Source of the DNA: Escherichia coli
GTDB lineage: Bacteria; Pseudomonadota; Gammaproteobacteria; Enterobacterales; Enterobacteriaceae
NCBI RefSeq assembly: GCF_050320075.1
Contig: NZ_CP190018.1
Direction: 5' to 3' (one strand)
DNA: 64,000 bases
How positions within the stretch are numbered: the first letter of the stretch is position 1; the number at the start of each line of letters is the position of its first letter. The notes beneath the pieces were generated by a model, which saw only the letters and a list, made by a program, of their open reading frames with translations, had not been told where the DNA came from and ran no database searches. The position numbers and the translations under genes were made by a program. Shown piece by piece: positions 1,338 to 12,164 of the stretch.

Positions 1338-3038
1338 ATGCGACTGCTCAACCGTCTTAACCAGTATCAACGTCTGTGGCAACCTTCCGCCGGAAAGCCG
1401 CAAACCGTCACCGTCAGCGAACTGGCCGAACGCTGTTTTTGCAGCGAACGCCATGTTCGTACGCTGTTACGCCAGGCACAGGAGGCGGGATGGCTGGAGT
1501 GGCAGGCGCAGTCAGGACGCGGAAAGCGCGGGCAACTACGCTTTCTGGTCACGCCAGAATCGCTACGCAATGCGATGATGGAACAGGCGCTGGAAACCGG
1601 AAAGCAGCAAGATGTGCTGGAGCTGGCGCAACTGGCCCCAGGTGAGCTGCGCACTCTGTTACAGCCGTTTATGGGCGGACAATGGCAAAACGATACGCCC
1701 ACGTTGCGTATTCCCTACTATCGCCCGCTCGAACCGCTACAACCGGGCTTTTTGCCCGGCCGTGCCGAGCAGCATCTCGCCGGACAGATATTTTCCGGCC
1801 TGACCCGCTTCGATAATAATACCCAGCGCCCGATTGGCGATTTAGCGCATCACTGGGAAACCTCTGCTGACGGGTTACGCTGGGACTTTTATCTTCGTTC
1901 AACCCTACACTGGCATAACGGCGATGCAGTAAAAGCCTCACACTTACACCAGCGATTATTGATGCTGTTACAACTGCCAGCACTGGATCAATTATTTATT
2001 AGCGTGAAGCGTATTGAAGTCACCCATCCGCAGTGTCTGACCTTCTTTTTACATCGCCCCGATTACTGGCTTGCGCACCGGCTGGCGAGCTATTGCAGCC
2101 ATCTGGCGCATCCGCAATTCCCCCTGATCGGCACTGGTCCTTTTCGCTTAACACAATTCACAGTGGAACTGGTGCGCCTGGAGAGTCATGATTATTACCA
2201 TTTACGTCATCCGCTGCTTAAAGCGGTTGAGTACTGGATAACTCCGCCGCTTTTCGAAAAAGATTTGGGAACCAGTTGTCGGCATCCCGTGCAAATCACT
2301 ATCGGCAAACCGGAGGAGTTGCAACGGGTCAGCCAGGTCAGTAGTGGCATCAGTTTAGGTTTTTGCTATTTAACGTTGCGCAAAAGTCCCCGACTGTCCC
2401 TCTGGCAGGCGCGAAAAGTGATCTCCATTATTCATCAATCCGGTTTATTACAAACGTTAGAAGTCGGAGAAAACCTGATCACCGCCAGTCATGCATTACT
2501 GCCAGGCTGGACTATTCCGCAATGGCAAGTACCGGATGAGGTCAAACTACCGAAAACCTTGACACTGGTTTATCACCTACCGATAGAACTTCATACCATG
2601 GCAGAACGTCTACAGGCGACACTGGCAGCGGAAGGCTGTGAACTCACAATTATTTTTCATAACGCAAAAAACTGGGACGACACGACCCTACTGGCACACG
2701 CAGACCTCATGATGGGCGACAGATTAATTGGCGAAGCACCGGAATATACCCTGGAGCAATGGCTGCGTTGCGATCCACTATGGCCACATGTTTTCGACGC
2801 TCCAGCATATGCACATTTGCAATCGACACTGGACGCGGTGCAAGTAATGCCTGATGAGGAAAACCGATTTAATGCCCTAAAAGCGGTTTTTAGCCAGTTA
2901 ATGGCAGACGCGACGCTGACGCCGCTATTCAACTATCACTATCGCATTAGTGCCCCTCCCGGCGTGAACGGTGTGCGACTGACACCGCGCGGCTGGTTTG
3001 AATTTACCGAAGCCTGGCTTCCCGCGCCGTCGCAATGA
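1338..3038 (+). CDS. ybaE: YbaE, SgrR-family regulator / solute-binding-like protein
   Basis: ORF 1323-3038 translation; start placed at second Met (MRLLNRLNQ) for ~566 aa; synteny next to cof. Confidence 0.8.
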   Translation: MRLLNRLNQYQRLWQPSAGKPQTVTVSELAERCFCSERHVRTLLRQAQEAGWLEWQAQSGRGKRGQLRFLVTPESLRNAMMEQALETGKQQDVLELAQLAPGELRTLLQPFMGGQWQNDTPTLRIPYYRPLEPLQPGFLPGRAEQHLAGQIFSGLTRFDNNTQRPIGDLAHHWETSADGLRWDFYLRSTLHWHNGDAVKASHLHQRLLMLLQLPALDQLFISVKRIEVTHPQCLTFFLHRPDYWLAHRLASYCSHLAHPQFPLIGTGPFRLTQFTVELVRLESHDYYHLRHPLLKAVEYWITPPLFEKDLGTSCRHPVQITIGKPEELQRVSQVSSGISLGFCYLTLRKSPRLSLWQARKVISIIHQSGLLQTLEVGENLITASHALLPGWTIPQWQVPDEVKLPKTLTLVYHLPIELHTMAERLQATLAAEGCELTIIFHNAKNWDDTTLLAHADLMMGDRLIGEAPEYTLEQWLRCDPLWPHVFDAPAYAHLQSTLDAVQVMPDEENRFNALKAVFSQLMADATLTPLFNYHYRISAPPGVNGVRLTPRGWFEFTEAWLPAPSQ

Positions 3039-7419: not shown

Positions 7420-9774
7420 CTATTTTGCAGTCACAACCTGCATGCCAGACGGTTCATTTTGCAGCGCCAGAGTCAGAACTTCCTCAATGCGTTTCACAGG
7501 ATGAATGTCCAGATCGGCAATTACGTTGTCAGGAATCTCTTCCAGATCGCGTTTATTTTCGAACGGAATTAACACTGTTTTAATCCCGCCGCGATGCGCT
7601 GCCAGTAGTTTTTCTTTCAAACCACCGATAGGCAGTACCTGACCACGCAGAGTGATCTCACCGGTCATTGCCACATCGGCACGAACCGGGTTACCGGTCA
7701 GGCAAGAAACCAGCGCGGTGCACATAGCAATACCGGCACTCGGACCATCTTTCGGCGTCGCACCTTCCGGTACGTGGACGTGGATGTCGCGTTTTTCGTA
7801 AAAATCAGGGTTGATCCCCAGTTTTTCCGCACGCGCACGAACCACCGTTAACGCCGCCTGAATGGACTCCTGCATCACTTCACCGAGCGAACCGGTATAG
7901 GTCAGTTTGCCTTTCCCCGGAACACATGCGGTTTCAATGGTCAGCAAGTCACCGCCCACTTCCGTCCACGCCAGACCGGTTACCTGACCGACACGGTTTT
8001 CGTTATCAGCGCGTCCATAGTCGAAACGCTGAACACCGAGGTAGTCATGCAGGTTATCACCGTTAATTTCGATATGTTTTAATGACTTATCGAGCAGTAA
8101 CTGCTTAACCGCTTTGCGACACAGTTTGGAGATTTCACGCTCCAGACCACGCACGCCCGCCTCACGGGTGTAATAACGAATAATGCCGATAATGGCGCTA
8201 TCGTCGACGGTCAGCTCACCTTTTTTCAGTGCATTACGTTCAATCTGCTTCGGCAGCAGGTGACGTTTGGCGATGTTCAGTTTTTCATCTTCGGTATAAC
8301 CGGAGAGGCGAATCACTTCCATACGATCCAGCAGCGGTGCCGGAATGTTCATGGAGTTCGACGTCGCGACAAACATCACGTCGCTGAGATCGTAATCCAC
8401 TTCCAGGTAGTGGTCGCTGAACGCTACGTTCTGCTCTGGATCCAGCACTTCAAGCAGTGCGGAGGCCGGATCGCCACGCATGTCAGAAGACATTTTGTCG
8501 ATCTCATCAAGCAGGAACAGCGGGTTTTTCACGCCCACTTTCGCCATTTTCTGGATCAGTTTACCCGGCATAGAACCGATGTAAGTACGGCGGTGACCAC
8601 GGATTTCCGCTTCATCACGCACGCCGCCCAGCGCCATACGGACATATTTACGCCCGGTTGCTTTGGCGATGGACTGACCCAGGGAGGTTTTACCTACCCC
8701 CGGCGGCCCTACCAGGCAGAGGATCGGTCCCTTGATTTTGTTGACACGGCTTTGAACCGCAAGATACTCAAGGATGCGATCTTTCACGCGCTCCAGACCA
8801 TAATGGTCGGTATCAAGGATTTCCTGCGCCTGACGCAGGTCTTTTTTGACCTTGCTACGCGCATTCCACGGCACCTGTACCATCCAGTCGATATAACCAC
8901 GCACTACGGTCGCTTCTGCCGACATCGGAGACATCATTTTCAGCTTCTGCAACTCTGCTTCCGCTTTCTCTTTTGCCTCTTTCGGCATTTTCGCCGCGTC
9001 GATTTTGCGCTTCAGGGCTTCGTTTTCGTCCGGCGCGTCGTCCATTTCACCGAGTTCTTTCTGAATAGCTTTCATTTGCTCGTTCAGATAGTACTCACGC
9101 TGGGATTTCTCCATCTGCTTTTTAACGCGGTTGCGAATGCGTTTCTCAACCTGCAGCAGATCGATTTCCGATTCCATCATTGCCATCAGATATTCCAGAC
9201 GTTCGTTAACGTCGGACATCTCCAGAACGGACTGTTTGTCAGCCAGTTTCAGCGGCATATGTGCAGCAATGGTATCCGCCAGACGCGCCGGGTCGTCGAT
9301 GCTATTCAGCGACGTCAGCACTTCTGGTGGGATTTTTTTGTTCAGCTTGATGTAGCCTTCGAACTGGCTGATTGCAGTACGCACCAGCACTTCCTGTTCC
9401 CGCTCATCAATGGTCGGCGACTCCAGATACTCCGCCTTCGCAGAAAAGTGTTCGCCATTGTCAGAGAGCGCAGAAATACGCGCGCGCTGTAACCCCTCGA
9501 CCAGCACTTTGACGGTGCCGTCAGGCAGTTTCAGCATCTGCAATATAGAGGCCACGGTCCCGACGGTGAAAAGATCGTTTACACCCGGCTCATCCGTTGA
9601 AGCTTCTTTCTGCGCGACCAGCATAATTTTTTTATCATGGTCCATCGCCGCTTCCAGACAACGGATAGATTTTTCCCGCCCGACAAATAAGGGGATGACC
9701 ATGTGCGGATAAACCACCACATCGCGCAGCGGCAATACGGGGATTTCAATGCGTTCAGAACGCTCAGGATTCAT
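7420..9774 (-). CDS. lon: ATP-dependent Lon protease
   Basis: ORF 7420-9819; true start taken at [24 protein letters not shown] (784 aa); Walker [10 protein letters not shown]; Ser protease domain. Confidence 0.95.
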
Positions 9775-9856
9775 AGAGCTCTCTCTTAGTTTAATTTCCG
9801 CCAGGTAATCAGATGACACGACTGTGCTTCACGCCATCTATTAACATGTACGTCAG

Positions 9857-9885
9857 TATATGGGGATGTTTCCCCCACATTCAAC
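9857..9885 (-). promoter_or_regulatory. Probable sigma32 heat-shock promoter of lon
   Basis: Minus strand reads TTGAAT - 12 nt - CCCCATAT, matching the sigma32 -35/-10 consensus, about 90 nt upstream of the lon start. Confidence 0.5.
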
Positions 9886-9961
9886 GCCGAGAATAGAGGA
9901 AAAATTAAAGGGGAGATAAAATCCCCCCTTTTTGGTTAACTAATTGTATGGGAATGGTTAA

Positions 9962-11236
9962 TTATTCACCAGATGCCTGTTGCGCTTCCGGCTTGCCATA
10001 AATCAGCAACGGCTTGCTTTGACCATCAATTACCGATTCGTCGATAACCACTTTTTCGACGTCTTCCATGGACGGCAGATCGTACATGGTATCGAGCAGT
10101 GCGGCTTCTACGATGGAACGCAGGCCACGGGCACCGGTTTTACGCGCCATCGCTTTCTTAGCGATAGCATCCAGCGCCTCGTCACGGAATTCCAGATCCA
10201 CGCCTTCCAGATTAAACAGCGCCTGATACTGCTTGGTCAGGGCGTTTTTCGGCTCTTTGAGGATCTGAATCAGAGCTTCTTCGCTCAGTTCATTCAACGT
10301 TGCGACAACCGGCAGACGACCAATAAACTCAGGGATAAGACCAAACTTGATCAGATCTTCCGGTTCAACCTGCGCCAGCAGCTCGCCTTCGCTTGCTTTG
10401 TCGGACTTCGCTTTTACCGTCGCGCCAAAACCAATGCCGGAGCCGGTTTCTACACGATGGGAAATCACTTTATCCAGACCGGCAAACGCACCGCCACAAA
10501 TAAACAGGATCTTAGAGGTATCAACCTGCAAGAATTCCTGCTGCGGATGTTTACGCCCACCTTGCGGCGGAACAGCAGCTACCGTACCTTCGATCAGTTT
10601 CAACAGTGCCTGCTGTACGCCTTCACCGGAAACGTCTCGGGTAATGGACGGGTTGTCTGACTTACGAGAAATCTTGTCGATTTCATCGATGTAGACAATC
10701 CCGCGCTGCGCTTTCTGTACGTCGTAATCGCACTTCTGCAACAGCTTCTGAATGATGTTTTCAACGTCTTCGCCCACATAACCGGCTTCGGTCAGCGTGG
10801 TTGCGTCGGCCATGGTGAACGGGACGTCCAGCAGGCGCGCCAGCGTTTCGGCCAGCAGCGTTTTACCGGAACCGGTCGGACCGATCAGCAGAATGTTACT
10901 TTTGCCCAACTCGACACCATTGCTGGTATCGCCGTTGCGCAGACGTTTGTAGTGGTTGTATACCGCGACCGCCAGCACTTTTTTCGCCTGTTCCTGGCCG
11001 ATAACGTAATCGTCCAGGTGGTTACGAATTTCATGCGGCGTCGGTAGCGCACTGCGTTCACGATGCGGTGCAACTTCTTTAATCTCTTCGCGAATGATGT
11101 CGTTACATAAATCAACACATTCGTCGCAGATATACACGGATGGACCGGCAATCAGCTTGCGCACTTCATGCTGGCTTTTGCCGCAAAAAGAGCAATACAG
11201 CAATTTGCCTGAGCCATCTTTGCGTTTATCTGTCAT
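9962..11236 (-). CDS. clpX: ATP-dependent Clp protease ATP-binding subunit ClpX
   Basis: 424-aa ORF; N-terminal zinc-binding CSFCGK...CDEC; Walker A GPTGSGKT. Confidence 0.95.
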
Positions 11237-11985: not shown

Positions 11986-12164
11986 TTCCGTCTCCTGGAT
12001 AAAATTGAAAAAACCTGCTGTACCGATTGTAACCTTATGGACGGATTATCAGCTAGTCCCTGTGTTATGGGTACGGCATCACCATATTTCAAGCATAACA
12101 ATCTTTTGTTGTTACGCTAACACCGAAAGAGGCTTTTCGCACGGTTCCATGCAAAATTCATGAC

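Follow-up and report, generated by a model that had tools for sequence, protein, structure and literature searches.

The clpX-lon spacer of this Escherichia coli chromosome holds, with a probability that we put at about 0.95, two classical signals that follow each other on the minus strand: an intrinsic terminator for clpX, followed by the heat-shock promoter of lon. Both elements are real, strongly conserved, ordinary and already described. The stretch of DNA that we analysed (the window, 64,000 nucleotides) carries on its minus strand tig, clpP, clpX, lon, hupB and ppiD, and the spacer at 9775-9961 corresponds exactly to the 187-bp interval from the clpX stop codon to the lon ATG. The clpX coding sequence (9962..11236, minus strand, stop codon TAA at 9964-9962) was taken from the list of open reading frames and is a 100% match to annotated E. 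coli clpX. For lon (7420..9774, minus strand) the listed open reading frame begins at an in-frame GTG at 9819, upstream of the true start ATG at 9774-9772; the first 12 residues of Lon were kept in 120 loci.

The promoter couples the synthesis of Lon, the main quality-control protease of E. coli, to the heat-shock response, a coupling known for some forty years. Accounts of the lon (capR) heat-shock promoter reportedly date from the 1980s (Gayda et al. 1985; Chin et al. 1988), and lon is said to figure among the sigma-32 promoters listed by Cowing et al. (1985). The reported transcription of the lon promoter by sigma-32 in vitro also belongs to this background. A preliminary description of the region, made from the letters alone, had correctly recognised both the sigma-32 promoter and the intrinsic terminator, and the locus thus provides a clean positive control.

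The window is reverse-complemented with respect to K-12 MG1655 (MG1655 coordinate = 468662 - window coordinate). Sequence comparison showed that the 187-bp spacer is base-for-base the same in both strains, so that published K-12 mapping data can be applied to it directly. Only two differences from K-12 were found, both in synonymous-region positions inside clpX (10037 and 10013). A 351-nt query around the spacer found a match of 95-100% identity, annotated as clpX and lon, in 5424 of the 5426 complete E. coli genomes.

The lon heat-shock promoter

The preliminary description had placed upstream of lon a TTGAAT followed by a sigma-32-like -10 element. Both were found on the minus strand. The -35 element TTGAAT (9879..9884) agrees with the sigma-32 consensus TTGAAA at five of six positions, and the -10 element CCCCATAT (9858..9865) has all seven specified bases of the consensus CCCCATNT. 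They are separated by the 13-nt sequence GTGGGGGAAACAT (9866..9878), instead of the "about 12 nt" first claimed, while the estimate of "about 90 nt upstream of lon" was fair, since the distance from CCCCATAT to the lon ATG downstream is 84-91 nt. A spacing of 13 bp falls within the range of about 13-15 bp of sigma-32 promoters; in other species the spacing was also 13, rarely 12 or 14. The pattern TTGAA-N12-16-CCCCATNT occurred once in the 64 kb, against 0.07 occurrences expected from dinucleotide-preserving shuffles. In a relaxed scan the lon site scored 12 of 13 against TTGAAA/CCCCATNT, the top sigma-32-type score in the 64 kb, and sites scoring at least 12 appeared in simulated sequence at a mean of 0.2 per window. 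The motif scan proposed in the preliminary description therefore returned this very site as the best of the window. The second-best motif on the same strand, a sigma-32-like site upstream of clpP (12092-12065, 11 of 13), served as an internal control: a mapped start lies 8 nt after it, and sigma-32 is among the sigma factors assigned to it (Cho 2014, PMC3923258).

Two independent published maps place transcription starts of lon directly downstream of the motif. The lon start listed by Kim 2012 in Table S1 (458039 in NC_000913.2; PMC3415461) corresponds to window position 9847 and gives a 73-nt 5' UTR; that of Cho 2014 (458037 in NC_000913.2, 1744 reads; PMC3923258) corresponds to 9849 and was seen in stationary, glutamine (nitrogen-limited) and heat-shock samples. 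The upstream strings printed by Kim (TCTATTCTCGGCGTTGAATGTGGGGGAAACATCCCCATATACTGACGTACA) and by Cho (CCTCTATTC...GACGTA) are the same as the window sequence. The mapped starts at 9849 and 9847 (9847..9849, minus strand) thus lie 9 and 11 nt after CCCCATAT, and not elsewhere, as a misplaced promoter would have required. In the ChIP-chip data of Cho 2014, the lon transcription unit TU_Ecoli-0479 is labelled 'DH', that is sigma-70 plus sigma-32 (PMC3923258). Expression of E. coli lon has also been stated to be sigma-32-dependent, with reference to Goff 1984 and Grossman 1984 (PMC7279449).

We then examined the spacer in relatives. Orthologous loci were sampled from one-genome-per-species contigs by anchoring on the conserved Lon N-terminal coding sequence alone, to avoid bias, which yielded 120 loci. 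In 118 of these clpX lay immediately upstream of lon, with a spacer of 176-377 bp in Enterobacterales and of 115-257 bp in Vibrionaceae and Aeromonadaceae. The pattern TTGAA-N11-17-CCCCATNT was present in 111 of the 118 spacers, which cover these three groups. When 57 distinct Enterobacterales sequences were aligned, TTGAAT and CCCCAT-TA were invariant and the 13 bases between them varied freely. Invariant elements around a free spacer are what a promoter should leave as its footprint. Taken together, the start site maps, the ChIP-chip signals of sigma-32 and sigma-70, and the invariant -35 and -10 elements with their variable spacer support the identification of the minus-strand motif as the lon heat-shock promoter; its heat inducibility and rpoH dependence are taken here from the literature or inferred.

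It could be argued that the motif is a chance match and that all lon transcripts arise by read-through from the promoters of clpP-clpX. Cho 2014 indeed assigned to lon two further, weak starts within clpX (PMC3923258), and termination at the hairpin described below is not absolute. We consider this reading to be close to excluded and rejected it on the start site and conservation data: the motif is unique in the window against an expectation of 0.07, a start with 1744 reads lies 9 nt downstream of it, and its elements are invariant across three orders. In addition, insertion of IS186 between the lon -35 and -10 elements is reported to lower Lon levels (PMC4618355).

More evenly balanced is the proposal that the site is mainly a housekeeping sigma-70 promoter (TTGAAT, 18 bp, TATACT), its likeness to a sigma-32 promoter being secondary; we would give it an even chance. 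The -10 hexamer of this type, TATACT (9855..9860, minus strand), overlaps CCCCATAT and lies 18 nt from TTGAAT, which would serve both promoters; a promoter scan reported the pair with 9 of 12 matches. Sigma-70 was bound here as well as sigma-32 (Cho 2014, PMC3923258), the start at 9847 lies 8 nt after TATACT (Kim 2012, PMC3415461), and T30 of TATACT was kept in at least 90% of the 57 Enterobacterales. Such a promoter would nevertheless be weak, owing to its 18-bp spacer and to a -35 element with only four of six matches to TTGACA, and about one match of this quality is expected by chance in a 551-bp region (mean 0.9). Moreover sigma-70 has no need of the CCCC tract, yet this tract is unchanged all the way from E. 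coli to Vibrio and Aeromonas, and in Morganellaceae the hexamer decays to TATAGT, TATATT or TATAAC while CCCCATAT is retained. The binding of sigma-32 in vivo (Cho 2014, PMC3923258) also speaks against a purely secondary role of the sigma-32 elements. The sigma-70 reading is thus a complement rather than an alternative to the heat-shock promoter, as both holoenzymes may use overlapping elements.

The position of the starts bears on the same question. At 9 and 11 nt after CCCCATAT they are slightly farther away than the 7-8 nt reportedly found at dnaK P1 and groE, and the start at 9847 fits the sigma-70-type TATACT at least equally well, so that transcription from here may be due in part to each sigma factor. 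The start at 9849 was absent from the exponential-phase list of Cho 2014, though lon is expressed in that phase (PMC3923258); depth thresholds or the use of other starts may account for this absence. On the reading that we favour, RNA polymerase carrying sigma-32 (RpoH) would recognise the lon promoter about 20 bp past the clpX terminator and start at about 9849, producing a lon mRNA with a leader of 73-75 nt. A rise in sigma-32 after heat or protein-misfolding stress would then raise lon transcription. The promoter is probably also read by the sigma-70 holoenzyme, which would supply basal lon expression from the same -35 element and the overlapping TATACT (9860-9855).

Within the promoter, the G-run at 9876-9872 and the CCCC of the -10 element form a dyad (fold z = -3.3). 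This sequence, GGGGG-AAACAT-CCCC at 9876-9862, agrees with what is reportedly the consensus target of IS186 (SaiSree 2001), and insertions were observed there. The preliminary description had passed over this hot spot, which is well documented: the lon promoter is a preferred site of IS186 insertion, which is a recurrent adaptive mutation (PMC3045373, PMC11251521, PMC4618355, PMC5306230), and to which the lon deficiency of E. coli B/BL21 has been attributed (PMC5306230). Among the 5424 genomes, 55 gave no alignment across the spacer. In one of these the alignment breaks at window position 9875, in the G-run, and the gene for an IS4-family IS421/IS186 transposase lies directly upstream; the junction, between ...AAGTTAGCGCTTATG and GGGAAACATCCCCATATACTGACG, shows that the IS splits the -35 from the -10 element. 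The same orientation of the IS was found in seven genomes, including clinical isolates, and the opposite orientation, at the same site, in BL21, REL606, C41 and other B derivatives. The run of five G belongs to Escherichia alone (E. coli and E. albertii); its counterpart in Salmonella, Citrobacter and Enterobacter is GTGTGGG. That IS186 in the lon promoter makes E. coli B/BL21 lon-deficient, and turns up repeatedly, both in evolution experiments and among some clinical isolates, was already known.

The clpX terminator and the opposite strand

Upstream of the promoter, the minus strand reads AAAAA-GGGGGGAT-TTT-ATCTCCCC-TTTAATTTTT, with an A-run at 9933-9929, a G+C-rich core at 9928-9910 and a T-run at 9909-9900. 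The stem-loop as a whole, AAAGGGGGGAT-TTT-ATCTCCCCTTT (9907..9931, minus strand), includes a single G.U pair when read as clpX-sense RNA and is followed by the T-tract TTTAATTTTTCCT (9897..9909, minus strand). The G+C core comprises eight pairs and the extended stem eleven, five of them G-C, closed by a 3-nt loop and followed by AATTTTT. On the plus strand the sequence is GGGGAGATAAAATCCCCCC, as the preliminary description had quoted it, followed by TTTTT, and a terminator scan detected the hairpin on both strands. The whole hairpin folded at -15.5 kcal/mol in the clpX sense against -12.3 kcal/mol in the antisense, and the core at -11.1 against -8.3 kcal/mol, the antisense RNA containing an A-C mismatch. 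The preliminary description had proposed that this hairpin would terminate clpX transcription, and the Term-seq data of Adams 2021 bear this out: a clpX-sense 3' end, recorded in two listed growth conditions at MG1655 458758(+) (PMC7815308), corresponds to window position 9904, within the T-tract and 3-6 nt past the stem.

Of the 118 spacers, 108 had a comparable stable hairpin with a T-rich tail, located between clpX and the promoter and differing in sequence from lineage to lineage (GGGGGAT/ATCCCCC, TGAGGG/CCCTCA or GGAGG/CCTCC). The clpX-sense hairpin was the stronger of the two orientations in 61 spacers and the antisense one in 14; G.U pairs numbered 47 in sense against 7 in antisense, and the U-tract was longer in sense. 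These counts are approximate, because in about 15 of 117 spacers automated extraction took a weak helix nearby for the core; both strands are affected equally, so that the direction of the bias stands. At least six T in the 10-nt antisense tail were present in 57 of 117 spacers. These results support the identification of the hairpin as the intrinsic, Rho-independent terminator of clpX. The element is thus built primarily for clpX, though about half of the spacers, including that of the window with its five consecutive U, also provide a U-tract usable in reverse. RNA polymerase leaving clpX would thus transcribe the G+C-rich hairpin (9928-9910) and the U-tract, and most transcripts would be released with a 3' end at 9904. 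Termination is incomplete, as indicated by a bicyclomycin-sensitive (Rho) region that Adams 2021 reported at 9831, in the lon leader and within its hairpin (PMC7815308).

The same DNA is matched on the plus strand by a small RNA family, SraA (Rfam RF02029, 9846..9941), which the preliminary description had missed. The full-length model scored 106.7 bits in cmscan, against a gathering score of 56 (E = 5e-19). Other Rfam matches in the region (DapZ, L20 leader, snoRNAs) were sub-threshold, with E values of 0.3-9, and were regarded as noise. The matched sequence is the lon promoter together with the clpX terminator in reverse complement: its 3' stem-loop is the terminator reversed, and its 5' stem-loop the G-run/C-run dyad of the promoter reversed. 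SraA is said to go back to Argaman et al. (2001). It is catalogued as a small RNA of E. coli and Salmonella located between clpX and lon (PMC3384567), and RNA-seq studies report its detection, one in E. coli (PMC12266141) and another in Yersinia ruckeri (PMC12112432); an overexpression screen left it without phenotype (PMC4606813).

The model matched above its gathering threshold in 15 of the 20 genera tested, which formally makes SraA a conserved RNA family, and the conservation of the segment might accordingly be ascribed to selection on this RNA instead of on the lon promoter. We rejected this reading as very improbable. It is precisely the -35 and -10 hexamers that make up the conserved columns, while the bases of the SraA 5' stem, which fall in the promoter spacer, vary freely, and the promoter motif extends to Vibrio and Aeromonas, in which the SraA model gave no match. 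When the spacer was shuffled with the -35 and -10 elements held fixed, the dyad beat its shuffles only in the core Enterobacteriaceae clade, and there the lon-sense strand gave the stronger dyad (z of -2 to -3, against -0.1 to -1.6 for the SraA strand). Furthermore, it is a lon start and sigma-32 binding that have been mapped at the segment. We concluded that the conservation of the SraA family is largely borrowed from the lon promoter and from the terminator of clpX. All the same, SraA may exist as a genuine transcript, antisense or divergent.

A related question is whether the hairpin is a true bidirectional terminator that also ends a plus-strand SraA transcript running across the lon promoter. 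The preliminary description had called the hairpin "bidirectional-looking", which was fair in that its reverse is the 3' hairpin of the SraA model, but the element is biased towards the clpX sense. A dual function is possible, though we lean against it. It would agree with the use of the hairpin as 3' stem-loop by the RF02029 match at 9846-9941(+), with the detection of GGGGAGATAAAATCCCCCC plus TTTTT by the plus-strand terminator scan, with the T-rich antisense tail of 57 of 117 spacers, and with the listing of SraA as a small RNA and its reported RNA-seq detection (PMC3384567, PMC12266141, PMC12112432). On the other hand, the antisense hairpin is the weaker one, both in the window and across species, and the Term-seq set of Adams 2021 contains no opposite-strand 3' end at the hairpin (PMC7815308). 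Table S2 of Kim 2012 gives no sraA start by any of the methods compared there (PMC3415461), and our promoter scan found no sigma-70-like promoter upstream of 9846 on the plus strand. Symmetry of A-tract and T-tract also occurs in Vibrio and Aeromonas, where the SraA model has no match.

The lon leader

Downstream of the promoter, the lon leader contains a hairpin, AGATGGCGTGA-AGCACAG-TCGTGTCATCT (9811..9839, minus strand), of which the structure is conserved and the sequence is not. It is followed by the block ACCTGGCGGAAATTAAACTAAGAGAGAGCTCT (9775..9806, minus strand), nearly invariant in the alignment of 57 Enterobacterales, which includes the stretch CCTGGCGG (9805-9798) and a Shine-Dalgarno-like GAGAGAG (9785-9779); counted with the start codon, the nearly invariant block after the hairpin spans 35 nt (ACCTGGCGGAnnnTAAACTAAGAGAGAGCTCT-ATG). 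Hairpin and block lie outside the original finding and had been overlooked in the preliminary description.

RNAalifold applied to 17 Enterobacteriaceae leaders gave a weak consensus of -3.9 kcal/mol, because the stems lie in different registers, and it was replaced by an alignment-free shuffle test. Of 60 unique lineage sequences, 59 had a variable leader segment that folded better than dinucleotide shuffles of that segment (mean z = -1.6), and in 21 of the 60 z was below -2. This test covers lineages other than Yersinia, Serratia, Rahnella, Dickeya and Pectobacterium, in which the search pattern caught the terminator CCCCCATTT and not the promoter. Among the 17 Enterobacteriaceae, double compensatory changes were found at four pairs of the hairpin.

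A search of one literature collection returned no described bacterial lon leader or 5'-UTR element, which is weak evidence of absence. If the locus holds anything new, it would be in the leader. We tentatively propose, as a rather unlikely reading, that the leader at 9849-9775, hairpin and block together, is an undescribed element of post-transcriptional control of Lon synthesis; it could for example be a binding site for a protein or a small RNA, or control the entry of Rho or of an RNase. A weaker reading than this one is that transcription of SraA across the lon promoter modulates lon by transcriptional interference.

Comparison with known systems

The promoter is the same as the lon (capR) heat-shock promoter of E. 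coli K-12, from which it does not differ at any position of the 187-bp spacer. It shares with other sigma-32 promoters (that of clpP in the window and, reportedly, dnaK P1 and groE) a TTGAAA-like -35 element, a spacer of 13-15 bp, a CCCCATNT-like -10 element and a start 8-9 nt downstream. The lon site is nearer to the consensus than the clpP site (12 against 11 of 13), and it is set apart from other sigma-32 promoters by the G5-N6-C4 dyad in its spacer, a feature of Escherichia only. This G-run/C-run dyad (9876-9862) coincides with the reported target of IS186 but, unlike in the strains occupied by the element, the promoter of the window strain is intact and uninterrupted.

The clpX hairpin can be compared with bidirectional terminators, of which Ju et al. 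(2019) reportedly made a survey and which are recognised by the symmetry of A-tract and U-tract. It resembles them in its G+C stem, its 3-nt loop, the 3' end located in the U-tract and the upstream A-run, which gives the reverse strand a U-tract of its own. It differs from them in its setting, since clpX and lon are co-directional and no convergent gene is present; the only candidate for a reverse transcript is SraA, for which the evidence is thin. The SraA family, finally, differs from the features recognised in the preliminary description in that it belongs to the other strand, and what marks it as a family coincides, read in reverse complement, with the hexamers of the promoter and with the terminator.

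IS186 at the lon promoter

We first consider the interval between the -35 (9884-9879) and -10 (9865-9858) elements of Plon, the sigma-32-type promoter of lon. [quoted passage not shown] Junctions of the G-run with IS186/IS421 were found in one orientation in 7 genomes and in the opposite orientation in B-lineage strains (BL21, REL606, C41 and others). The clpX-lon spacer was not spanned by the alignment in 55 of the 5424 complete E. coli genomes matched.

A junction of this kind lies at 2990-3015 of the comparison record L122 (NZ_CP137697.1), a 128,814-bp sequence deposited as 'plasmid' pEcFELIX533.1. Its genes are chromosomal, in the order ybdK-hokE-IS186/IS421-lon-hupB-ppiD, and the IS lies between hokE and the lon promoter's -10 half, joining the two. 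This looks like a chromosomal segment between two IS186 copies that was circularised or translocated, or else like an assembly artefact.

Other sigma-32-type sites and the sraA match

The second-best sigma-32-type match on the minus strand, TTGAAATATGGTGATGCCGTACCCATAA (12065-12092, 11/13), is located about 80-107 nt upstream of clpP. A transcription start site has been mapped 8 nt past this motif, and sigma-32 is one of the sigma factors assigned to it (Cho 2014, PMC3923258); the site is the clpP heat-shock promoter. Among the comparison records carrying lon loci, the strict Plon motif was absent in a few lineages, including Proteus penneri (L042), a Pantoea symbiont (L058) and two Vibrio records (L025 and L079). 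The Proteus counterpart reads TTGAATGTCAGAAAAGTGCCCTTATAT, with a degenerate -10 element, CCCTTATAT.

On the plus strand, positions 9846-9941 gave a full-length match (106.7 bits) to the model of the sraA small RNA family (Rfam RF02029). This segment is the exact reverse complement of Plon plus the clpX terminator, and transcript support for sraA was thin in the published datasets examined. The family seems to owe its conservation to the terminator and to the hexamers of the promoter.

The lon leader and its insertions

In the interval 9772-9819 (minus strand), the mechanical ORF list opens lon too far upstream, at an in-frame GTG (9819) that belongs to the 5' UTR; the true start is the ATG at 9774, as established by the annotation and the conserved N-terminus. 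The same leader contains a hairpin (9811-9839, minus strand) conserved in structure and not in sequence, which folded better than its own shuffles in 59 of 60 unique enterobacterial sequences and showed some compensatory changes. A bicyclomycin (Rho-sensitive) signal at 9831 falls within it (Adams 2021, PMC7815308).

Directly 5' of the ATG, the block ACCTGGCGGAAATTAAACTAAGAGAGAGCTCT (9775-9806, minus strand; 32-35 nt), which includes the palindrome AGAGCTCT, is nearly invariant in 57 Enterobacterales, a conservation well beyond the requirements of a Shine-Dalgarno sequence. Insertions of differing lengths in the leaders of Xenorhabdus (L075), a MAG (L087) and Mangrovibacter (L034) split this block at one common point, GGCG(G/A)AA(A/G)C / (T)AAAC. 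The leader of Enterobacter sp. R1(2018) (L066) is interrupted by roughly 190 nt of inserted, strongly structured sequence that includes an ERIC/IRU-like core, TGAATCCCCAGGAGCATAGCTAATATGTGACTGGGGTG (reverse complement).
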